Positions 19,255-59,936 of a DNA stretch of 64,000 bases are shown one piece after another; positions within the stretch are counted from its first letter, which is position 1; every line of letters starts with the position of its first letter. Below the pieces are notes generated by a model. It made no database searches, had not been told where the DNA came from, and saw only the letters and a list, made by a program, of their open reading frames with translations. A program made the position numbers and the translations under genes. Source of the DNA: a phage; assembly GCA_019326865.1 (NCBI GenBank), contig GCA_019326865.1_4101.1; one strand, 5' to 3'.

Positions 19255-19325
19255 AATTTATTCCTTTAAATCAGTAAAGTACTAGTTCAGTACTGGGAAT
19301 TATATAGAAATATTTATTCAAAAAG

Positions 19326-19349
19326 AAAAGCACTCAGAAGAGTGCTTTT
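19326..19349 (-). terminator. rho-independent terminator after gp25-like gene
   Basis: 10-bp perfect stem AAAAGCACTC/GAGTGCTTTT, 4-nt loop, T-run on minus strand. Confidence 0.65.
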
Positions 19350-19355
19350 TCTTAA

Positions 19356-20277: not shown

Positions 20278-20289
20278 GTACTGAAATAT

Positions 20290-26401: not shown

Positions 26402-27241
26402 ATGACAAATAGACCAAAGCGTAAAAAGTATCTCAATAATGCTGATTTACTTCGTGAAATACAAAAAAGTAAGATTTCATATTGCTGGTTATTAGACAAA
26501 TCATATAGTATGTATGATTATATCGTTTTTCATGAGTCAGAAATTACTGCTGAGTTACTTGAAAAAGCAAAAGCAGCACGAATTAAACGACTTAATAATG
26601 AAATGCTTGATAGTATTCGTGCAAAGGAAAATATGAGTGCTAAAAAAGCGAAAGAATATGCAGAAGAAAATAATCTCGTTATTACTGATGTTCCAATTGA
26701 TGAAGTAGTTATTCGTGTTATAACAGATGAACACATCCCACCAGATACTAGAGTTAATTTTGAACCTTTCAAACATTACATTGTAGATAGTGAAGGTATT
26801 CTTTATGAAGTATGTCGTTCTCATTGGAAAGGTGATCTTGAATCTGGGGAATTTAGTGCTGTTCATGGTAAAATTACAAATGAACTAGGGAAAATGTTCA
26901 TTAAACTTGCAGAGGAAATCTCACATAAATCTAATTATCGAAACTATACATACTTAGATGAAATGATGGGTGATGCAAGAATACAATTAGTTAAAAATGC
27001 ACTTCTCTTTAAAGAGAGCATTCTTTATAAAAAAGACAAACCCGCTGTACAACTAAATCCTTTCTCTTACTATACATCATTCGTAAACAATAGTTTTCGT
27101 TCAATTTTGAATAGTGAGAAAAATGTTCGAAATATACGTGATGATTTACTTGAAATGCATGGTTTTACTCCATCACATACACGTCAAATTGAAATTGAAT
27201 TGAACATGATTGAAAGGAAAAATGAAGATGGCACTGTTTGA
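26402..27241 (+). CDS. late-transcription sigma factor gp55-like (~280 aa)
   Basis: Position immediately upstream of gp47/gp46 as in T4; N-terminal KKYLNNADLLREIQK and C-terminal segments resemble gp55 as recalled; track start 26393 is TTG, ATG at 26402. Confidence 0.6.
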   Translation: MTNRPKRKKYLNNADLLREIQKSKISYCWLLDKSYSMYDYIVFHESEITAELLEKAKAARIKRLNNEMLDSIRAKENMSAKKAKEYAEENNLVITDVPIDEVVIRVITDEHIPPDTRVNFEPFKHYIVDSEGILYEVCRSHWKGDLESGEFSAVHGKITNELGKMFIKLAEEISHKSNYRNYTYLDEMMGDARIQLVKNALLFKESILYKKDKPAVQLNPFSYYTSFVNNSFRSILNSEKNVRNIRDDLLEMHGFTPSHTRQIEIELNMIERKNEDGTV

Positions 27242-32818: not shown

Positions 32819-32909
32819 TTTTGTTAAATCTCCATGTAATAAATGTGTTTATAGTATTTATGAACTCAATAAAGATCAAATAAACCATTTTTTATAATCA
32901 CAATAGTTT

Positions 32910-35165: not shown

Positions 35166-36905
35166 ATGAGTTGGAAACGACATATGACAGTGGGAAGGTC
35201 AAAGCTATCGACTATCCCAAATCAGTCCAATAATAGCAATAAATCAACAGGAACAAAAACCAATTTTGCTTCCTATCTTCCAGTTGTATATAATGGATTG
35301 GCAAACCGTACTGAACGTTATAGTCAGTATGAGCAAATGGACCAAGACCCTGAAATTAGAACTGCATTGAATATCATTGCTGACTTTTGTACTCAAAGTA
35401 CTGAAGATTATGGTTTACCATATAAAATAAAATACAAAGATGATATTGGAGATACTGAAGTAACAACGATTGAAGATCGTTTAGATGCATGGACTGAACA
35501 AAATGATTTTAAAACACGAATGTATGAGATTGTACGTGGTCTTTTGAAATATGGGGACCAGTTTTTTATCCGAGATCCAGAAACATTTGATTGGTATTGG
35601 GTGAGTCCAAAAAACGTCGAACAAGTATTTGTTAATGAAGCAACTGGGAAAACACCAGTAATTTATTACATACGTGATGTATCATTAAACTTAAAAGATA
35701 AAGTTTATAGTAATCTACAAGTTGGATTCGATAAAACCGCTTATCCTGGTGCTATTCCTACAACAATGGGTGGTGGTGGTTCTGTCGCTGCTGGCGGTGC
35801 ATCTGGATTCACTAGTCAAGGTAATACTGCTGACCCTTTCAGCACTAATGGTCAATTAGATGTTATTCCTGTTGGTGCAGAACACGTAATCCATTTGACG
35901 CTAAATACTGGACAAGATGGAGTATGGCCTTTTGGTACTAGTATACTTGAGGATGTATTCAAAGTTTATAAACAAAAAGAACTTCTAGAAGATAGTATCA
36001 TAATTTATCGTGTACAACGTGCTCCAGAACGTCGTGTTTTTAAAATCGATGTTGGTGATATGCAAGCACATCAGGCAATGGCTTATGTGGAAAGATTTAA
36101 AAACGAAATTCATCAGCGTAGAATACCTTCAAACAAAGGTGGAAGTACTTCTTTAATGGATGCAGCATATAATCCTTTAAGTATATTAGAAGATTACTTT
36201 TTCCCACAAACTTCTGAAGGTCGTGGTTCGGATGTTCAAACTTTACCAGGTGGTGATAACTTAGGGCAAATTGATGACTTACGCTACTTCAATAATAAAT
36301 TGATACGTGGTCTTCAAATACCAGCTTCCTATCTACCACAAGGTCCAGATGATGGTGGTGTTTCATTATTTGGTGATGGTGCAACACAAGCTATGGCAAG
36401 TGAATTACGATTCAATAATCAATGTATGCGTTATCAGCGTTTAGTTGCGAAACATTTTGATGCTGAATTCAAAAGATTTATGGTAAAAAATGGATATAAT
36501 ATTAGTACTTCATCATTTGAAGTCATTATGAATCCACCAATTAACTTAGCTTCTTATCGTAAAGCTGAATTGGATGCTAAATTAATTAATACATATCTAC
36601 CTCTTAATGATTTACCTTATATGGCTAAACAAACAATTCTTGAGAAAATGGGCTTTTCTAAAGCAGATATTGTTAAGAATGAACAAATGTGGTTACAAGA
36701 GAATCCACAAGATGGTTCTCAACCTTCTAGTGGTGAAGAAGATTCTGCTGGATTACAGTCTGTTGGTATTGATGCACCAAATGACCCAGGTATGGATCTT
36801 GGTATTGACGGTGATGGTAATTTAGAAAGTGCTGATTCCGAATATCAAGAACAACAAAGTGGAAGTGATGGTTTCAATCCTAATAATTTAGGCAATTCTT
36901 TTTAA
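35166..36905 (+). CDS. portal vertex protein gp20-like
   Basis: LEDSIIIYRVQRAPERRVFKIDVG and TLPGGDNLGQIDDLRYF match T4 gp20 segments ([41 protein letters not shown]) as recalled. Confidence 0.85.
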   Translation: MSWKRHMTVGRSKLSTIPNQSNNSNKSTGTKTNFASYLPVVYNGLANRTERYSQYEQMDQDPEIRTALNIIADFCTQSTEDYGLPYKIKYKDDIGDTEVTTIEDRLDAWTEQNDFKTRMYEIVRGLLKYGDQFFIRDPETFDWYWVSPKNVEQVFVNEATGKTPVIYYIRDVSLNLKDKVYSNLQVGFDKTAYPGAIPTTMGGGGSVAAGGASGFTSQGNTADPFSTNGQLDVIPVGAEHVIHLTLNTGQDGVWPFGTSILEDVFKVYKQKELLEDSIIIYRVQRAPERRVFKIDVGDMQAHQAMAYVERFKNEIHQRRIPSNKGGSTSLMDAAYNPLSILEDYFFPQTSEGRGSDVQTLPGGDNLGQIDDLRYFNNKLIRGLQIPASYLPQGPDDGGVSLFGDGATQAMASELRFNNQCMRYQRLVAKHFDAEFKRFMVKNGYNISTSSFEVIMNPPINLASYRKAELDAKLINTYLPLNDLPYMAKQTILEKMGFSKADIVKNEQMWLQENPQDGSQPSSGEEDSAGLQSVGIDAPNDPGMDLGIDGDGNLESADSEYQEQQSGSDGFNPNNLGNSF

Positions 36906-36926
36906 ACATAAATAACAGTGTATAAG

Positions 36927-36952
36927 AATGAGGGTTTATATTAGCCCTCATT
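36927..36952 (+). terminator. hairpin after portal gene (weak or partial terminator)
   Basis: AATGAGGG-N10-CCCTCATT; downstream U-tract poor. Confidence 0.35.
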
Positions 36953-36978
36953 TATAATGCATATTTCAAGGAGATTGA

Positions 36979-37206
36979 ATGTTAAAGGACATCTTTGAAT
37001 CTAGCAGTGATTCAATGTACGACCCTGAAGATGATCAGAACGTATATAAAATTACTGACTCCAGAAAACCAAAACTAACATTACAAGTATTAAATAACTT
37101 AAGAAAGTATCGTGAATTTAAAGCACATGAGGAACAACGCCGCAAAAATGTGGTTGCTGTTGTTTATGCATCTACCCCAACAGGTGATGATTCTGGATTA
37201 ATGTAA
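36979..37206 (+). CDS. small acidic prohead protein (gp67-position, 75 aa)
   Basis: Position between portal and prohead protease genes; acidic composition. Confidence 0.35.
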   Translation: MLKDIFESSSDSMYDPEDDQNVYKITDSRKPKLTLQVLNNLRKYREFKAHEEQRRKNVVAVVYASTPTGDDSGLM

Positions 37207-37258
37207 ATCAAAAATCGCACTTTTTTAAGCTTTTAAAAAAGGTGATTTTATTCAGTAC

Positions 37259-37307
37259 TAAATAATATCATACTTTATACGAATATAATATATCTATGGA
37301 GGATATA
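37259..37307 (+). promoter_or_regulatory. conserved leader cassette shared with capsid gene
   Basis: AAATAATATCATACT...ACGAATATAA...TCT..GGAGGATATAATG, near-identical to 40005-40058. Confidence 0.5.
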
Positions 37308-38138
37308 ATGGCGAATTTAAAACTACTACAAGAAGCAATTGCGGCGTTTGCAAATGGTGAACAAGATATTGCTGATAAAAAAATGCGTAAGTATTTTGTT
37401 GAGCAAGCACAAGAAATTAACAAGAAGCTAGAAGAAAGCATGGAAGATGAAGACGAGGAAGTTGAAGTCGAAGATGAAGAACAGCTTGACGAAGATTTTG
37501 ATGTGCAACCAGATGCTGGTCTAAATGCTGAAATCGAATACACACTTGGTGAAGAAGATGAAAGTGCAGAAGATGAAGTTGAGTTTTCTGCTGATGCTGA
37601 TGGTGACGGTGAAGATGATGTTGATGTGGAAGTGAAGGCAGATGCTGATGTTCCTTCTGAAGATCAATGGGAATCAATTCAGGATGCTTTCCGTGGTTTA
37701 CAACAAATGTTTGATGAAATTGGTGATGGCGAAGTTGACCTAGATTCCGATGAAGAAGTTGAAGATAGTGAAGAAGAAGTCGGTGTTGACGGGGAAGACG
37801 AATTTGCTGACGTTGAATTCGGTGATGAAAAAATTGGTGAATCCTTCAAACTAGAAAAAGTTGCACCTGTCGACAAGAAAGAAAAAGCTGGTACTCATAC
37901 TAAATCCCCAGTAGCACCTGAAGCAAAATCCCCAGTAGCAGGAGCAGAACCAGTTAAATTTGCAAAGAAAACTGATCAAGCACCACTAGTAGACCTAGAT
38001 GATAAATCTGTTCTACCAAAAGATAACCTTGATCTTGGTAAAAATGCTCGCGGTGAAATGAAAGATGTAAAAGCACCAAAAACTACTGCATCAAATTCTA
38101 AATCACCACTAAGTAAAGCACAACCTAAAGTAAAATAA
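37308..38138 (+). CDS. highly acidic prohead core/internal protein
   Basis: Long Asp/Glu runs (EDEDEEVEVEDEEQLDEDF), basic Pro/Lys-rich tail; ATG 37308 with GGAGG RBS; shares a conserved leader with the capsid gene. Confidence 0.5.
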   Translation: MANLKLLQEAIAAFANGEQDIADKKMRKYFVEQAQEINKKLEESMEDEDEEVEVEDEEQLDEDFDVQPDAGLNAEIEYTLGEEDESAEDEVEFSADADGDGEDDVDVEVKADADVPSEDQWESIQDAFRGLQQMFDEIGDGEVDLDSDEEVEDSEEEVGVDGEDEFADVEFGDEKIGESFKLEKVAPVDKKEKAGTHTKSPVAPEAKSPVAGAEPVKFAKKTDQAPLVDLDDKSVLPKDNLDLGKNARGEMKDVKAPKTTASNSKSPLSKAQPKVK

Positions 38139-38158
38139 ATAAATGAAAGGAGATCATT

Positions 38159-38782
38159 ATGAGTAGTATGATACGTGAATGGTCTTCATTCAATGATTCT
38201 AAAGTTGTTTTGGAACATCGTGATAATGGGTTTGGTGGGCGTGATTGTTACCTTCGTGGTATTGCAATTCAAGCAGACCAACGCAATTTGAACGAGAGAA
38301 TTTACCCTTTATCTGAAATTACAAGAGCAGTAAATAATATGAATCAGCGTTTAGCTAAAGGTGAAAGTATTCTTGTTGAATGTGACCATCCAGAAACACT
38401 GACTATTAATTTAGACCGAGTAGCAGCAATGATTACTAAGGTTTGGATGGAAGGTGCAAATGGTATGGCTGAAATCAAATTACTTGATACTGCACATGGT
38501 CAGAATATCCGTAAAATGCTAGAGGCTGGTGTAAAACTTGGTGTAAGTTCTCGCGGTTCCGGTAACGTAGATTATAATGGAATAGTTTCTGATTTTGAAA
38601 TTATCACTATTGATATTGTTGCTCAACCTAGTGCTCCAGAAGCATACCCAACAGCGGTATTTGAATCTCTGATGAGTAAGTACGGATCACCTTGTAATGG
38701 TTCTAAAAAAATCACTGAATCTAAAAAAGTAAATAATTTAGATTCTGAAATATACGATTTTTTCAAGAAATTAAAAGGTTAA
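38159..38782 (+). CDS. prohead core protease gp21-like
   Basis: NERIYPLSEI, VECDHPE, GVSSRGSG and IVAQPSAPEA motifs resemble T4 gp21 as recalled; sits before scaffold and capsid genes. Confidence 0.8.
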   Translation: MSSMIREWSSFNDSKVVLEHRDNGFGGRDCYLRGIAIQADQRNLNERIYPLSEITRAVNNMNQRLAKGESILVECDHPETLTINLDRVAAMITKVWMEGANGMAEIKLLDTAHGQNIRKMLEAGVKLGVSSRGSGNVDYNGIVSDFEIITIDIVAQPSAPEAYPTAVFESLMSKYGSPCNGSKKITESKKVNNLDSEIYDFFKKLKG

Positions 38783-38793
38783 CATTTTAAAAA

Positions 38794-38822
38794 TATAAAT
38801 ATCTGTATGTTGAAGTACAGAT
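38794..38822 (+). promoter_or_regulatory. T4-type late promoter plus leader hairpin for scaffold gene
   Basis: TATAAATA followed directly by ATCTGTA-N8-TACAGAT inverted repeat. Confidence 0.5.
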
Positions 38823-38848
38823 ATTTCAGTACTTAAAGGAGAGAACGA

Positions 38849-39964
38849 ATGTCTAAATTAGAAAAGCTTCTAAAAGAATCATCTCTTTCTGATGAGGCAA
38901 AACAGCTAATTCAGGAAGCATGGAATGAAGAAAAGAACACACTAGCCGCAGAGATGCGTGAAGAAATGAAAGGCCGTTATCAGCAAGATTTGGCTGAACT
39001 AACCGAAGGATTGAACACTATGGTTACTCAAGTCATTGCTGAAGAAATGGGTGCTGTATATGAAGAGAAAAAACGTCTTGTTGAAGATCGTGTAACTCTA
39101 CGTAAAACACTAAGTAATTTCTCTGCGTTTTCAAATTCTGTTTTGGCTGAAGAAGTTAAACAAATGCGTAAAGAGCGTAAGCATCTACATGAATGCATGG
39201 GTAAATTCGTTAATTTTTCTAACGGTATCCTAGCAGAAGAACTAAAAGAATTCCACACAGAAAAACGTCAACTGGTTGAAGCTCGTGTAAAATTACTTGC
39301 AGAAGGTTCACGTCAAATTGCTGAAGCTCGTAATAACTTCATCAAACGTACATCTGAAAGTGCTGCTAAATATATTGCAGAGACAACACAGAAGAATCTA
39401 TATGCGTTAAAACAAGATCTAGTGGAAGCGAAACAAAATATGTTTGGTCGTAAAATCTTTGAAGCATTTGCTCAAGAATTTAATGTCAAACAATTCAATG
39501 AAAATTCATTGCTACGTTCACTAACTGAAACAATTAAATCTAAAGAAGATGAAATTGATCAAGTTAAGCAAGAACTACATGAAACTGTTAATGCGGTCAA
39601 AGCTGCTAAAACTAAACTACGTATTATGGAAGATGCACAAGCCCGTAATGCGATTATGTCTGAACTAGTAAAACCACTAACTGCACAGCAAAAACAAATT
39701 ATGGAATCCCTTCTAGCAACTTCACCTACTGAAAAGCTTAAAGAAGATTTCAGTAAGTACCATAAGTCAGTACTTAACGGTACTAAAGTAAATGAATCTG
39801 CTACCACTCGTCAAGCAGTTCAGTCTTCCGCTAAGAAAACTCTTGCAGAAGGTAAAGTGATCACTGGCAACCGTCAGGCTATTGTTGAAAGCGAAGAAAT
39901 GACCGCTGACGATATGGCATTCCTAAAAGAACTCGATGTTCTTTCGGGTATCAATAAAAAATAA
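38849..39964 (+). CDS. prohead scaffold protein gp22-like (coiled-coil)
   Basis: Heptad-rich alpha-helical composition; position between protease and capsid genes; TATAAATA late promoter upstream. Confidence 0.6.
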   Translation: MSKLEKLLKESSLSDEAKQLIQEAWNEEKNTLAAEMREEMKGRYQQDLAELTEGLNTMVTQVIAEEMGAVYEEKKRLVEDRVTLRKTLSNFSAFSNSVLAEEVKQMRKERKHLHECMGKFVNFSNGILAEELKEFHTEKRQLVEARVKLLAEGSRQIAEARNNFIKRTSESAAKYIAETTQKNLYALKQDLVEAKQNMFGRKIFEAFAQEFNVKQFNENSLLRSLTETIKSKEDEIDQVKQELHETVNAVKAAKTKLRIMEDAQARNAIMSELVKPLTAQQKQIMESLLATSPTEKLKEDFSKYHKSVLNGTKVNESATTRQAVQSSAKKTLAEGKVITGNRQAIVESEEMTADDMAFLKELDVLSGINKK

Positions 39965-40002
39965 ACATTTTAAAGCATTTTAATAATCAATTTTTTCAGT
40001 TC

Positions 40003-40010
40003 TATAAATA
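40003..40010 (+). promoter_or_regulatory. T4-type late promoter (TATAAATA) for major capsid gene
   Basis: Exact box 46 nt upstream of ATG 40056. Confidence 0.6.
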
Positions 40011-40055
40011 ATATCATACTGAAAAACGAATATAACATCTTTAAGGAGATATATA

Positions 40056-41231
40056 ATGTCACAACTACTAAATGAATCCAAATGGGTAGCAGTAAAAGAG
40101 AAACTAGTTGAAGGTCTACAGGGTACTCGTAAGTCTGTAATGGAAACTGTTCTTGATAACCATCGTAAAGTTATGCTAACTGAATCCGCAACTTCTGGTG
40201 CAACTACCGCTGGTAATATCGCTACACTAAACAAAGTGATTCTACCAATTATGCGTCGTGTAATGCCAACTGTTATTGCTAACGAAATTATCGGTGTTCA
40301 GCCTATGACTGGTCCAGTCGGTCAAATTCACACCCTACGTGTACAATATGCTGATAATGCACCTGGTGTTATCGCTGGTGAAGAAATGCTTTCTCCATAC
40401 AAAATCGCTAAATCCTACTCTGGTGAACTAAATTCTGATAACAGCAATCCTCAAGCTGCTCCTACTAGCCAACTAGAAGGTACTATGGGTCGTCGCGTTA
40501 ACATCCGTATTCTACGTGAAACTGTTGAAGCGAAATCTCGTCGTCTATCTGCACGTTGGACTGTTGAATCTGCACAAGATGCTCAATCCCAACATGGTGT
40601 TGACGTTGAAGCAGAACTAATGGCTGCAATCGCTCAAGAAGTTACCGTAGAAATCGACCAAGAGCTACTAAGCCGTCTACGTGCACTACCAGGTGCTGCT
40701 GCTGTAACTTATGACCAATCTAAAGTTACTGGTGTTGCAACCTTCGTTGGTGATGAGCACGCTGCTCTAGCAACTCTAATTAACCGTCAAGCAAACGAAG
40801 TTGCTCGTCGTACTAAGCGTGGTGCTGCAAACTGGGCTGTTGTTTCCCCAACTGCACTAACCATTCTACAATCTGCTACTACTTCTAGCTTTGCACGTAC
40901 CACTGAAGGTACTTTCGAAGCACCAACTAACGTTAAGTTTGTAGGTACTCTAAACAGCACTATGCGTATTTTTGTTGATACTTATGCAAGTGATTCAGAA
41001 GATATTCTAATTGGTTATAAAGGTAATGCAGAAACTGATGCTGGTGTGTTTTATTGCCCATACATCCCACTAATGGCGTCCGGTACTGTAATGGACCCTA
41101 ACACTGGAGAACTCGTAACCACTTTCTTAACCAGATACGGGTACGTTCAGTTGACCGATAGCACCAGTTCACTAGGTAACGCTGCTGACTACTACAGCAA
41201 AATCGCTATCAAAAACGTTACTTTCATGTAA
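40056..41231 (+). CDS. major capsid protein gp23-like (391 aa)
   Basis: IANEIIGVQPMTGPVGQIHTLRVQYA, VEAKSRRLSARWTVESAQD and FVDTYASDSEDILIGYKGNAETDAGVFYCPYIP match T4 gp23 segments as recalled; TATAAATA late promoter, GGAG RBS, strong terminator downstream. Confidence 0.9.
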   Translation: MSQLLNESKWVAVKEKLVEGLQGTRKSVMETVLDNHRKVMLTESATSGATTAGNIATLNKVILPIMRRVMPTVIANEIIGVQPMTGPVGQIHTLRVQYADNAPGVIAGEEMLSPYKIAKSYSGELNSDNSNPQAAPTSQLEGTMGRRVNIRILRETVEAKSRRLSARWTVESAQDAQSQHGVDVEAELMAAIAQEVTVEIDQELLSRLRALPGAAAVTYDQSKVTGVATFVGDEHAALATLINRQANEVARRTKRGAANWAVVSPTALTILQSATTSSFARTTEGTFEAPTNVKFVGTLNSTMRIFVDTYASDSEDILIGYKGNAETDAGVFYCPYIPLMASGTVMDPNTGELVTTFLTRYGYVQLTDSTSSLGNAADYYSKIAIKNVTFM

Positions 41232-41275
41232 TATTGATTTTTGTAGAATTTATAGAATAAAAAACTTTTATACTA

Positions 41276-41301
41276 GGGACTCTTCGGAGTCCCTTTTTTT
41301 T
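41276..41301 (+). terminator. rho-independent terminator after major capsid gene
   Basis: GGGACTC-TTCG-GAGTCCC then T8. Confidence 0.85.
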
Positions 41302-41324
41302 GGTTTTTATATAACTAAAAGATC

Positions 41325-41353
41325 TTGACAGCACTTAACAATTGTAGTATCAT
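41325..41353 (+). promoter_or_regulatory. sigma70-like promoter for homing-endonuclease-like gene A
   Basis: TTGACA-N17-TATCAT just downstream of capsid terminator. Confidence 0.4.
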
Positions 41354-41387
41354 ACGTGTAAATAAAGAAAAGAACTCGGAGAAAATC

Positions 41388-42983
41388 GTGTTAGAAGAAA
41401 TCAAGAAGTTTTTATCAGAGAAAAATGTTCGTGGTGTTAAATCTGCTCTGCAAGCAAAATCTGTATACATTGAATTCCTGCGAGAGATGTTTGGTGATAT
41501 CGATCTTAATGAAATGATTTATATGGTATTGAATGATATTACTTCAGTGCCGAATGCTGAATGTGGTGACAAAGCTAAGTTTATAAGTATTACCGAAGGA
41601 TATTCTTACAAGTGCAATAAACCATTTCAAGGAAAAGGAAAATGCCTTATCTGTTGCTCCGCAGTTGCTAGGAAACGTAAAGAAACTTACAAAGAAAAAA
41701 CTGGTTATGATAACCCGGCACAGAATCCAGAAATTCAAAAGAAAATAGGGTATACCAATGAACAACGTTATGGCACTCGTATTGCTCAACAATCTGAACA
41801 AGTAAAGCAGAAATCAATAGAAACTAATATCAAAAAGTATGGCGTTGTTCATCCATCACAGTTGGAAAGTAATAAACAGCAACGTTTACAAACTGTACAA
41901 GAAAAGTATGGTATCAATAATGTATGGCAACTTAATAAAGGTCTTAGTGCACGTTATGAACAGTTTAAAACACGATTTGAACAGGATGGTAAATTTACTC
42001 TTTTAAGTGATGAATCCCATTATGATAATAGCAATGACGCAACTCATGCAATCATGCACTGGAAATGTAATGAATGTGGTAATGAGTTTGATAAAGTTGC
42101 TCTTTGCTTACGCTGCCCTAAGTGTGAACCATATTCATCCAGTACTGAAGAAGTTAATCTTTATAATTACATTACCTCTATCTATAGTGGTGTTGTTATT
42201 CAAAACAGCCGCAACATAATCAAAGGTAATGAAATTGATATTTTCATCCCAGAACTGAAACTTGGTATTGAGTTCAATGGTGAGTACTGGCATCGTGATG
42301 AAGTTCGTGGTAAAGACTATCATCAATCCAAATACTTCAAAATGAAGGAAGCAGGATACAAACTTATCACTATCTATAGTAATGAATGGTCAAATAAAAC
42401 TGAAATTGTTAAGAATCGTTTGAAAAGTTTGATTAGTGTGGATAGTAAAATCTATGCTCGTAAGTGTGAAGTTAGATTGGTTGTACATGAAGAATGTGAT
42501 AAATTTTTGTATGAACATCATATTCAAGGACCATGCCAATCATCAATCAAACTTGGACTTTACTATAATGATGATTTGGTTGCTTTGATGACATTTGGTG
42601 CACCACGATTTAACAAGCAGTATGAATATGAATTACTGCGTTATTGTTCTAAAGGAACAGTTGTTGGGGGTGCATCGAAACTGTTAAAACATTTTGAACG
42701 TATGTATCTTCCTAAATCTCTTCTTTCATACGCCGATATGAACTGGAGTACTGGTAATTTGTATGAAAAAATTGGTTTTACTTTAGAAGAAGTAACTCAA
42801 CCTGGTTATTTTTACTATGATAGAAAAAACGAAGTTGTTTATTCTCGCCATCAATGCCAAAAACAAAAACTTATTAAAAAATATAATTTTGATAGTTCTA
42901 TGACAGAGAAGGAAATGACAAAAGAATTAGGATACTTTAGAATCTATGATTGTGGTAACTTAGTTTATAAAAAGATTTACTAA
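41388..42983 (+). CDS. homing-endonuclease-like protein A: Cys-rich zinc-ribbon regions, tandem repeats, Vsr-like PD-(D/E)xK nuclease core
   Basis: IDIFIPELKLGIEFNGEYWH resembles the Vsr/DUF559 active-site region; repeats of form G..(N/H)P.Q......K........YG; own sigma70-like promoter; track start 41325 is TTG, GTG at 41388 has GGAG RBS; paralog at 62327. Confidence 0.55.
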   Translation: MLEEIKKFLSEKNVRGVKSALQAKSVYIEFLREMFGDIDLNEMIYMVLNDITSVPNAECGDKAKFISITEGYSYKCNKPFQGKGKCLICCSAVARKRKETYKEKTGYDNPAQNPEIQKKIGYTNEQRYGTRIAQQSEQVKQKSIETNIKKYGVVHPSQLESNKQQRLQTVQEKYGINNVWQLNKGLSARYEQFKTRFEQDGKFTLLSDESHYDNSNDATHAIMHWKCNECGNEFDKVALCLRCPKCEPYSSSTEEVNLYNYITSIYSGVVIQNSRNIIKGNEIDIFIPELKLGIEFNGEYWHRDEVRGKDYHQSKYFKMKEAGYKLITIYSNEWSNKTEIVKNRLKSLISVDSKIYARKCEVRLVVHEECDKFLYEHHIQGPCQSSIKLGLYYNDDLVALMTFGAPRFNKQYEYELLRYCSKGTVVGGASKLLKHFERMYLPKSLLSYADMNWSTGNLYEKIGFTLEEVTQPGYFYYDRKNEVVYSRHQCQKQKLIKKYNFDSSMTEKEMTKELGYFRIYDCGNLVYKKIY

Positions 42984-46077: not shown

Positions 46078-46109
46078 AGTCATTCCACAATGTTCCTTAT
46101 GGAATGACT
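46078..46109 (+). promoter_or_regulatory. perfect 10-bp inverted repeat at transcript start (operator or 5' hairpin)
   Basis: AGTCATTCCA-N12-TGGAATGACT beginning 3 nt after the -10 hexamer. Confidence 0.4.
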
Positions 46110-46149
46110 ATATTTGATTATATAATTTATCACATGGAGATATACAAAA

Positions 46150-46452
46150 ATGGCTAAATCTAAAAAAGAAGTTAAAGTAGAAATTCGTGATCTAAACGAT
46201 GAACAACGTAAACGCCTCGGAGATGCACTTAATAACATTGTTGTACAACTTACTTTCATTGATGATACCAAAGCATCCTTGTCAGATTTTGTTTCTAGTA
46301 TTTCAGATGAACTAGGTATCAATGCATCTGATATCAAGCAAGCTGCACAGCGTATGTATAAAGGTGATTACTTTGATAAACAAAGCAAACTAGATAACAT
46401 CGAAACTATCCTAAGTGTTACTAATAATCTACCACAAGCAGATGATTACTAA
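46150..46452 (+). CDS. hypothetical early protein (100 aa)
   Basis: ORF downstream of GGGACA-N16-TATAAT promoter and a 10-bp inverted repeat; terminator downstream. Confidence 0.5.
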   Translation: MAKSKKEVKVEIRDLNDEQRKRLGDALNNIVVQLTFIDDTKASLSDFVSSISDELGINASDIKQAAQRMYKGDYFDKQSKLDNIETILSVTNNLPQADDY

Positions 46453-52861: not shown

Positions 52862-53461
52862 TTATAGTTGAACTGGAAGAGCAGCACGTACTTTAATAGC
52901 TACAGCAGTAGATGCACCTGCATCACCAACACCATCAGTTCCTTGACTTACGAAAGTTTTAGTACGAAAAACTTTAGCTTGTGCAATAGATTTAGCTAGG
53001 TCAACAGTTGGATCAACTGGAGCAGGACATGCAGAACCTGGACGAACTTCTTGTTTATTAAATACGTCTTGACGTTCACAGATGAAAGTCAATGCAACAG
53101 AGTTAGCACCACCTTTAACATCAGTACCGCTAGTACCAAATGCAACTACGTTTGGGTTAGCATTTTTAAAATCTTCAGGAATAACAACTTCTGCATCAAG
53201 AGCAAGTAGTGAAGTCGTTACAAGAACAGCACGTTGCTGTAGTAGTTGAGTAACCATGAATAGGTTATATTGTGCATTGCTTAGTGCAGTTTGATATGCA
53301 TCAGCTTGAGCATCAGAACCATCGGACACAACTTTAGTAGTACCGATTTCAACATCAGTTGGTAGGTCGATTACGATGGTTACAAAACCGTTGTTGCCAC
53401 CCCACCATTCACGTGCAACACCAGACATACCATAGTTACGGTTAAAAGAATTAAGACTCAT
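52862..53461 (-). CDS. structural-type protein, paralog 2 of tandem pair
   Basis: As above; AAGGAG RBS. Confidence 0.45.
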   Translation of the reverse strand: MSLNSFNRNYGMSGVAREWWGGNNGFVTIVIDLPTDVEIGTTKVVSDGSDAQADAYQTALSNAQYNLFMVTQLLQQRAVLVTTSLLALDAEVVIPEDFKNANPNVVAFGTSGTDVKGGANSVALTFICERQDVFNKQEVRPGSACPAPVDPTVDLAKSIAQAKVFRTKTFVSQGTDGVGDAGASTAVAIKVRAALPVQL

Positions 53462-53585
53462 GAAAATCTCCTTGTCGAATTTTGTGCAGGTTCATCCTGC
53501 TTAAAGTTATTTATCAAAAAATATTCCTAGCATTTAAATTTACTGGAATAATTAATGAATTTCTATGATATTATTTATCAAAAAT

Positions 53586-59936
<6,351 letters not shown>

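Follow-up and report, generated by a model that had tools for sequence, protein, structure and literature searches.

The gp55-dependent late promoters of phage T4, e.g., that of gene 23, lack a -35 element and consist of an 8-bp box that is separated from the start site by AT-rich DNA. The box occupies positions -13 to -6, and the AT-rich DNA follows just downstream (PMC1524935, PMC2988020). Late promoters of the T4 type are already known in Rak2-like phages as in silico predictions, i.e., the ATAAATA promoters of CBB and GAP32, which were reported together with a predicted gp55-like sigma factor (Buttimer et al. 2017, PMC5259590). Here, two regions of this kind were compared in a 64,000-nt stretch of phage DNA (contig GCA_019326865.1_4101.1, hereafter the window): one 5' of the major capsid protein (MCP) gene (A, ATG at 40056) and one 5' of the gene of a 276-aa acidic virion protein (B, ATG at 37308). 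The two regions are probably sister copies of one late-gene expression module, made extra-similar by homogenisation in this genus.

The genus was assigned by sequence comparison as Asteriusvirus, i.e., a Rak2-like jumbo coliphage of the 121Q/PBECO4/UE-S1 type. The head-gene segment (36900-41300) showed 99.0% identity to Escherichia phage UE-S1 and approximately 95% identity to 121Q, PBECO4, and G17.

The locus shares with T4 the 8-bp box, which is exact in A, the placement of promoters before virion genes that are arranged in a gp20-(gp67/68 position)-gp21-gp22-gp23-like order, a phage-encoded gp55-family sigma, and the avoidance of the box word elsewhere in the genome. As a difference, this phage has a second positioned element, YATA(C), 3-4 nt after the box, and we know of no description of such an element for T4. 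Further differences are the CTAAATA variant in B, as in Aeh1, the strongly conserved DNA before position -13 of the MCP promoter, and the partners that act in T4 activation, i.e., the co-activator gp33 and the sliding clamp gp45, which were not identified in this phage group (PMC5259590). The study of CBB and GAP32 described the same motif 5' of structural genes in the same phage group and hinted only at "A and T downstream" of the box in CBB, but gave no start-site element, no MCP/B/sheath subclass, and no paralogy of the MCP and B upstream regions (PMC5259590). From the computation we infer, as new points, a positioned YATA(C) start-site element, a promoter subclass of MCP, B, and tail sheath, and the paralogy of the MCP and B modules together with their homogenisation.

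The features of the two modules are as follows.

40003-40010, +: T4-type consensus late box TATAAATA of the MCP gene, predicted at -13 to -6 (geometry of PMC1524935 and PMC2988020)
40011-40020, +: spacer ATATC and initiator CATACT of A, predicted start at the adenine of 40016; exact repeat with B
40016-40055, +: predicted 40-nt unstructured AU-rich MCP leader, with ACGAATATAA at 40026-40035 and the Shine-Dalgarno (SD) sequence AAGGAG at 40043-40048, 7 nt before the AUG
40056-41231, +: MCP gene (A), T4 gp23-like, by the annotation of the 99-95% identical UE-S1, 121Q, and G17 records
37258-37264, +: late box variant CTAAATA of gene B, predicted at -12 to -6
37265-37274, +: spacer ATATC and initiator CATACT of B, predicted start at the adenine of 37270; exact repeat with A
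37270-37307, +: predicted 38-nt B leader, with ACGAATATAA at 37279-37288, a small SD-presenting hairpin, and the SD GGAGG at 37298-37302
37308-38138, +: gene B, 276-aa acidic virion or prohead-core-like protein, PHROG 15696 "virion structural protein"

Similarity of the MCP and B upstream regions

The initial annotation had described near-identical cassettes at the two genes, with similarity extending beyond the 8-bp box and the ribosome-binding site (RBS) and start codon. Both strings are present. They contain a 16-nt exact direct repeat, TAAATAATATCATACT (37259-37274 and 40005-40020), and a 23-nt repeat of 83% identity (37279-37301 and 40026-40048) that starts with ACGAATATAA in both copies. 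The position of A was correct, with the box at 40003-40010 and the ATG at 40056-40058, but the box of B starts at 37258, one base before the 37259 first given. The real ATG of B lies at 37308-37310, and an in-frame ATG at 37296, within the RBS region of B, is probably not the start.

The similarity indeed covers the complete intergenic regions (approximately 95-100 nt), which align over 97 columns with 74 identical (76%). When the 100-nt upstream regions of the window were scored against each other (1128 pairs), the A-B pair was at the top with a Smith-Waterman score of 73, vs. 41 for the runner-up (mean 16.9, sd 3.6). The highest score in 5000 shuffles was 43. The search for the 15-nt element elsewhere found two sites only in the window and two only in the complete 121Q genome (348,532 bp), and nearly all of approximately 40 Asteriusvirus records gave BLAST matches to the A region at exactly two sites in each genome.

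AT-rich, low-complexity DNA can resemble other such DNA by chance. A+T makes up 68% of the intergenic DNA, and over the whole genome this DNA has no more copies of the bare TAAATA hexamer than its composition predicts (73 observed vs. approximately 75 expected). For the A and B regions, however, such a chance likeness is scarcely credible: it is refuted by the pair score, which exceeds both the shuffle maximum and the next real pair, by the 16-mer, which is unique to both sites in 348 kb, and by the conservation of the pair in approximately 40 genomes.

Both genes are late virion genes, as had been proposed. A is the MCP gene, and the phAPEC6 orthologue of B, gp228, was detected in virions (PMC7247149). 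The B product has a pI of 4.05, and D and E make up 30% of its residues.

The second-best upstream pair (score 41) consists of 32819-32870 (-) and 46100-46152 (+), which share TTAT[TC]ACATGGAGAT[TA]TA(A)CAAAAATG around the RBS and start codon. The ACATGGAGA context at 26402 is related to this motif.

Box, predicted start-site element, and late sigma factor

The box of the MCP gene is the T4 consensus. The variant of B, CTAAATA, is a late-promoter form in Aeh1 (PMC1524935) and is also found in the published list of predicted CBB late promoters (PMC5259590), and B orthologues of other genera carry TATAAATA at the box position. The window has 21 TAAATA sites in approximately 3.2 kb of intergenic DNA, all of them 16-110 nt 5' of a gene on the same strand, and 18 are ATAAATA. 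No hexamer of 121Q is more strongly depleted than TAAATA/TATTTA, with 231 copies against 489 expected (z=-11.7, maximal-order Markov model), which is consistent with selection against spurious late promoters. Because intergenic DNA shows no excess of the bare hexamer, the box is supported by the enrichment of ATAAATA in the structural region, its orientation, its depletion in coding DNA, and the coupled YATA.

The initial annotation had named the 15-nt element beside the promoter box and had suggested a shared leader function. With the geometry of the T4 box, +1 becomes the A of CATAC, i.e., 40016 in the MCP gene and 37270 in B, and by this analogy the element would be mostly promoter, from -10 to +5: the 3' part of the box, an AT-rich melting spacer of 4-5 nt, and the CATAC initiator. 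This start assignment is independently supported, because YATA is positioned 3-4 nt after TAAATA, which matches the T4 geometry. Of 73 intergenic TAAATA sites in 121Q, 15 have YATA 3 nt and another 15 have it 4 nt downstream (approximately 40% together), vs. approximately 1.5 expected per offset, and only 3-4 of 119 TAAATA sites in coding DNA have YATA at these offsets. From these counts, TAAATA-N3/4-YATA appears to be a genome-wide late-promoter pattern in this phage, and the comparison suggests that the late promoter of Rak2-like phages is bipartite, i.e., the box and a YATA start-site element.

The longer form, ATAAATAA-N3-YATAC, was found in 121Q intergenic DNA at the MCP, B, and tail-sheath promoters only, and it is kept at these three promoters across genera. 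CATAC is kept 5' of the MCP gene in Asteriusvirus, 7t3, EJP2, Mimasvirus, Eneladusvirus, and XaC1, and it is also kept across genera in B. No virion proteins are more abundant than the MCP and the tail sheath (PMC7247149). A third, partial copy of the extended promoter was found on the minus strand.

53560-53579, -: partial extended-promoter copy GATAAATAATATCATAGA, 5' of the gene of a 199-aa abundant virion protein (52862-53461)

The 199-aa product was equated, by size and gene order and without alignment, with gp210 of phAPEC6, a 20.9-kDa virion protein with 69.8% coverage in mass spectrometry (PMC7247149).

The sigma factor that would read these promoters is encoded in the window.

26402-27241, +: gp55-like late sigma gene, 279 aa, PHROG 12791 "sigma factor for late transcription" (E=1.8e-153)

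The gene also matched PHROG 234 "late sigma transcription factor" (E=1.4e-16) and is the orthologue of 121Q gene 591, annotated as RNA polymerase sigma factor, whereas Pfam gave no match and PDB no sequence match. A gp44-like clamp loader is included in the 121Q annotation. In a consensus scan, no sigma-70-type promoter was found on the plus strand of the A or B upstream regions. The literature searched on Asteriusvirus or Rak2-like promoters and start sites held only the in silico prediction for CBB and GAP32, and no transcript 5'-end mapping for Rak2-like phages was found in it. The RNA-seq paper on PA5oct gave sigma-70-like motifs only.

In the reading preferred here, i.e., one duplicated late-gene module, the host RNA polymerase with the phage gp55-like sigma would recognise TATAAATA at the MCP gene and CTAAATA at B, melt the AT-rich ATATC spacer, and initiate at the A of CATAC. 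The box-N3-YATAC form, common to the tail-sheath promoter, would mark the promoters of abundant virion proteins, as the MCP and the sheath are.

It could be further proposed that the box-N3-YATAC promoters of MCP, acidic core protein, and sheath make a "super-late, high-output" class, whose mRNA 5' ends, AUAC with or without ACGAAUAUA, are read by a dedicated phage factor. Such a factor could stabilise the mRNA by binding its 5' end, activate translation, or serve as a second specificity subunit, and would set the stoichiometry of the three proteins. This proposal is quite improbable. If true, it would add a layer of control after initiation, of a kind not known for late gene expression in T4-like phages.

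The palindrome AGTACT is an over-represented word of these genomes. It has 903 copies in 348.5 kb of 121Q, approximately 7.5 times the composition expectation, and the longer words CAGTAC and TTCAGTAC reach approximately 9 and 17 times. The counts by codon frame are 377/247/153, the density is higher in intergenic DNA, and the peak lies at 125-150 kb. Sites of this type in the window are, e.g., 37253-37258, 38826-38834, and 20278-20286 (-). The excess is also found in the head loci of RaK2, XaC1, GAP32, 7t3, CBB, and EJP2, but not in those of Vibrio phage 2.275.O or PA5oct. It is a DNA-level signal, and a literature search on AGTACT in jumbo phages returned no paper. TTCAGTAC, which lies beside several boxes, was considered as a specific promoter element and rejected, since (C)AGTAC(T) is massively over-represented genome-wide; its presence next to boxes is probably a by-product of this excess.

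Leaders and probable homogenisation of the two copies

Selection on the intergenic regions was assessed by comparing the window with BF17 and JNE01, taking the 4-fold degenerate sites of five head genes as the reference, where the identity was 0.71-0.74. The identities of the intergenic regions are listed below; g75 is the 75-aa open reading frame (ORF) before gene B.

Scaffold-MCP intergenic region: identity 0.98 (89 of 91), binomial P=7e-10
Protease-scaffold intergenic region: identity 0.96-0.98
g75-B intergenic region: identity 0.90-0.91
B-protease intergenic region: identity 0.55-0.61

In other genera, the MCP upstream region shows 76-87% identity over 66-82 nt, and the MCP leader follows the pattern GAAAA[AG]C[GA]AA...ATCTTTTAAGGAGAT. 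The leader length, approximately 36-42 nt, is kept in the genera with enterobacterial hosts and in XaC1, with the exception of the RaK2 B leader, 31 nt.

No conserved, significantly stable fold was found in the A and B leaders when they were folded against shuffles. The MCP leader has a minimum free energy (MFE) of -1.8 kcal/mol (z=+1.4), and 190 of 200 shuffles fold equally well or better. The B leader has a hairpin of -4.4 kcal/mol (z approximately 0 vs. shuffles) with GGAGG partly in the loop; the hairpin is invariant across genera and so gives no covariation signal. An Rfam scan of 36850-41450 (E<=1) gave only two irrelevant sub-threshold matches, which lie elsewhere.

The gene 10 leader of T7 is a further comparison, for the MCP leader. 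The ribosome-binding region of A, CTTTAAGGAGATATA, resembles CTTTAAGAAGGAGATATA of T7 gene 10, and the 3' half of the leader, CTTTAAGGAGATATATAATG, with the arrangement CTTTAAG-GAGATATA-(N)-ATG, is similar to the T7 initiation region CTTTAAGAAGGAGATATACATATG. Both are unstructured AU-rich leaders of the major capsid gene of a coliphage, with a strong SD. However, there is no homology and the promoter type is different; the likeness is short, convergent at best, and one of sequence only. CTTTAAG..GAGATATA is present in A, whereas B lacks it. A translational-enhancer-like role of the MCP leader itself is plausible, because the leader is highly conserved, unstructured, and similar to that of T7 gene 10. 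Under the preferred reading of one duplicated module, both mRNAs would have an AU-rich leader of 38-40 nt with little or no structure, and an SD, AAGGAG or GGAGG, 5-7 nt before the AUG in a ATATAAUG context; the strong SD and the open leader would then give very efficient translation.

The leader element ACGAATATAA behaves differently in the two lineages. The A lineage carries GAAAA[AG]C[GA]AA, with ACGAA or GCGAA in 7t3 and EJP2. The B leaders of 7t3/Kae01, EJP2, CBB, GAP32, Yen9-03, XbC2, XaC1, and RaK2 are AAAATAAATTTTTGTATATCT-like, without ACGAATATAA, and their spacers are ATGAC, ATCAC, or AGGAC. Only in Asteriusvirus does B have both the ATATC spacer and the ACGAATATAA of A, and the A-B alignment score is 69-77 in this genus vs. 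25-38 elsewhere. Within Asteriusvirus, the B leader varies only inside ACGAATATAA, i.e., ACGAATGTAA in 121Q and ATGAATGTAA in BF17, with no variation in the A copy. Over the 16 nt that follow the box, the A-B identity is 0.63 within a genome vs. 0.52 between genomes, a difference reached by 27 of 5040 permutations. Since ACGAATATAA in B is young, limited to Asteriusvirus, and polymorphic, it points to transfer or homogenisation and not to a conserved leader function. The similarity beyond the box appears functional in the promoter and initiator part and in the MCP leader. The shared leader function suggested by the initial annotation, e.g., a translational enhancer or a regulator-binding site, is only partly supported, and it is weakened for a common ACGAATATAA element, which in B is genus-specific and the one variable part of the leader.

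Compared in sequence, the extra identity of A and B is best explained by concerted evolution, i.e., short gene conversion between direct repeats 2.75 kb apart. In this process, the ATATC spacer, ACGAATATAA in B, and the collinear upstream similarity would have come from transfer or gene conversion from A to B, or from the sheath to B, over an older common origin of both promoters. The tail-sheath leader starts with TATACGAATAT, and in vB_Ec-M-J it shares the 14-mer TATACGAATATAAT with the B leader of the window; either leader, that of A or that of the sheath, could therefore have been the donor. The same tendency, with another sequence, is found in Vibrio phage 2.275.O, whose A and B have TATAAATAnAGTTATATAAA in common. 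The tail-sheath upstream region (121Q 262782-262853) is itself conserved across genera as ATCCT[TC]CAATAAATAA-N3-TATA(A)CGA..., and its leader has TATACGAATAT in 121Q, UE-S1, vB_Ec-M-J, and GAP32, TATAACGAATAT in 7t3, and TATACGAGAAT in RaK2.

The shared sequence after the start, i.e., the 5'-AUACU end and ACGAAUAUAA, could also be read as a functional RNA element. Such an element might enhance translation, stabilise the mRNA from its 5' end, or bind a phage-encoded regulator that couples the synthesis of MCP, the acidic core protein, and perhaps the sheath. The conservation of the MCP leader far above neutral expectation, within the genus and across genera, fits such an element, as does its likeness to the T7 gene 10 leader. 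The predicted MCP, B, and sheath mRNAs all start with AUAC, and three of the 13 copies of ACGAAT[AG]TA in the 697 kb of two-strand 121Q sequence are in their predicted leaders. However, in B the element is found only in Asteriusvirus and is the sole variable part of the leader (C/T and A/G polymorphisms), and other genera conserve another sequence, AAATTTTTGTATATCT, in their B leaders. The sheath leader has the motif as one half of a small 5'-proximal hairpin, CGAAT..ATTCG, whose loop length differs between phages, and A and B have no such hairpin. With no conserved structure, no Rfam match, and the paralogy of A and B, which are hence not independent observations, a common RNA element is unlikely.

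The repeat and its statistics, the genome-wide motif, the conservation across genera, the lack of RNA structure, and the sigma gene carry the reading of a duplicated and homogenised module. Several points weigh against it. The box of B, ACTAAATA at 37257-37264, matches the T4-type box in 6 of 8 positions and deviates from the consensus in two. One paralogous array of RCC1-like genes accounts for eight of the 15 N3-YATA sites. The start sites are predicted, as is the use of the boxes itself. The 38 nt upstream of the MCP box are approximately 98% conserved within the genus, and to our knowledge nothing upstream of -13 is needed in T4-type late promoters. The statistic for concerted evolution is modest, and selection for one optimum would give the same result. 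ACGAATATA is also placed at the 5' end of the tail-sheath leader, where it could be a functional RNA motif rather than a mere transfer. Homologues of gp33 and gp45 were reported as undetected in CBB (PMC5259590), and the activation mechanism may therefore differ from that of T4.

Upstream context, neighbouring genes, and meaning of the module

The two promoters differ in the DNA directly before them.

37211-37252, +: hairpin and T-run resembling an intrinsic terminator, directly 5' of the B promoter (MFE -14.2 kcal/mol, z=-4.3)
39965-40002, +: AT-rich region 5' of the MCP late box, without hairpin (0 kcal/mol), strongly conserved

A hairpin with a different sequence was found at the same place upstream of B in every genus examined, with -8 to -25 kcal/mol. 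These hairpins were folded per sequence; RNAalifold on the MAFFT alignment was uninformative, as that alignment is not structure-aware. The DNA upstream of A can be aligned in several genera to the T-run and the 3' arm of the terminator before B. In PA5oct, the B promoter is present as GATATAAATAATATACAAC, but the MCP gene lacks a promoter of its own. This fits an old duplication of a B-type promoter to the MCP gene.

The PeSL cassettes (PeSLs) of T4-type phages are composite terminator and promoter motifs that mediate shuffling (PMC4122927, PMC2839356). The A and B regions resemble them in being short repeated intergenic cassettes whose copies are kept similar within a genome, and B also in joining a stem-loop terminator to a promoter. 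The B upstream region is a composite of terminator and promoter, as for many 121Q late promoters, and an RCC1-like array in 121Q has approximately nine near-identical terminator-promoter cassettes. The repeats could then be primarily recombination substrates, a late-promoter analogue of PeSLs kept for module exchange. However, PeSLs have early sigma-70 promoters and many copies, which border variable genes in hyperplastic regions (PMC2839356, PMC4122927), whereas A and B are two late-type copies at conserved, syntenic, essential core head genes, where no genus shows rearrangement, and the stem-loop is present only at B. The protease and scaffold genes would be lost if the two direct repeats recombined, and no breakpoint or indel was found at the repeats in approximately 15 genomes inspected. 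A role primarily in recombination is most improbable, and the duplicated expression module is the reading retained.

The cassettes of the RCC1-like gene array, at 117-131 kb of 121Q, consist of a GCCAGTAC..GTACTGGC hairpin, a T-run, and TATTAAATATAGTATAATGAATA, and are PeSL-like units.

The gene order around the two modules mirrors the order of T4 genes 20-67-68-21-22-23 and, for the genes listed here, agrees with annotated relatives.

35166-36905: portal
36979-37206: g75
38159-38782: prohead protease
38794-38848, +: scaffold late promoter and leader, with TATAAATA, then an ATCTGTA-N8-TACAGAT hairpin, then TTTCAGTACTTAAAGGAG; outside the A/B repeat
38849-39964: scaffold
41275-41302, +: strong intrinsic terminator AGGGACTCTTCGGAGTCCCT plus T8, closing the MCP transcription unit; annotated terminator in UE-S1 and G17

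Pfam gave no match for B, the 75-aa protein, the scaffold, the late sigma, and two virion proteins. The scaffold promoter belongs to the same head-gene regulatory set as A and B. Its hairpin lies at the very 5' end of the predicted mRNA and may be a 5' stabilising stem-loop, given the 96-100% conservation of the promoter and leader region in Asteriusvirus.

A near-consensus sigma-70 promoter, TTGACA-17-TATCAT (11/12), starts at most 30 nt after the MCP terminator. Terminator and promoter together (41275-41353, +) mark a switch from the late unit to an early- or middle-type unit.

The large terminase gene of the window (55855-58512, +) encodes 885 aa vs. 545 aa in 121Q. A LAGLIDADG / Hom_end homing-endonuclease domain was found at residues 283-363 approximately, ahead of the Terminase_6N domain. 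The extra segment, absent from 121Q, is probably an intein or an in-frame endonuclease insertion. A 254-aa ORF of 121Q (314100-314864), annotated as "protein associated with group I intron", separates the gp6-like baseplate wedge gene from the next gene of the baseplate. At this place, the window has no more than a spacer of approximately 100 nt (19255-19355).

The A/B module is a fairly ordinary high-expression module and no new kind of system. It gives concrete coordinates for late promoters, start sites, and leaders in Rak2-like jumbo phages, and the compact, strongly conserved promoter and leader might be used as a cassette for late expression when such phages are engineered. The module would also be a small, clean case of concerted evolution of regulatory DNA within a phage genome.

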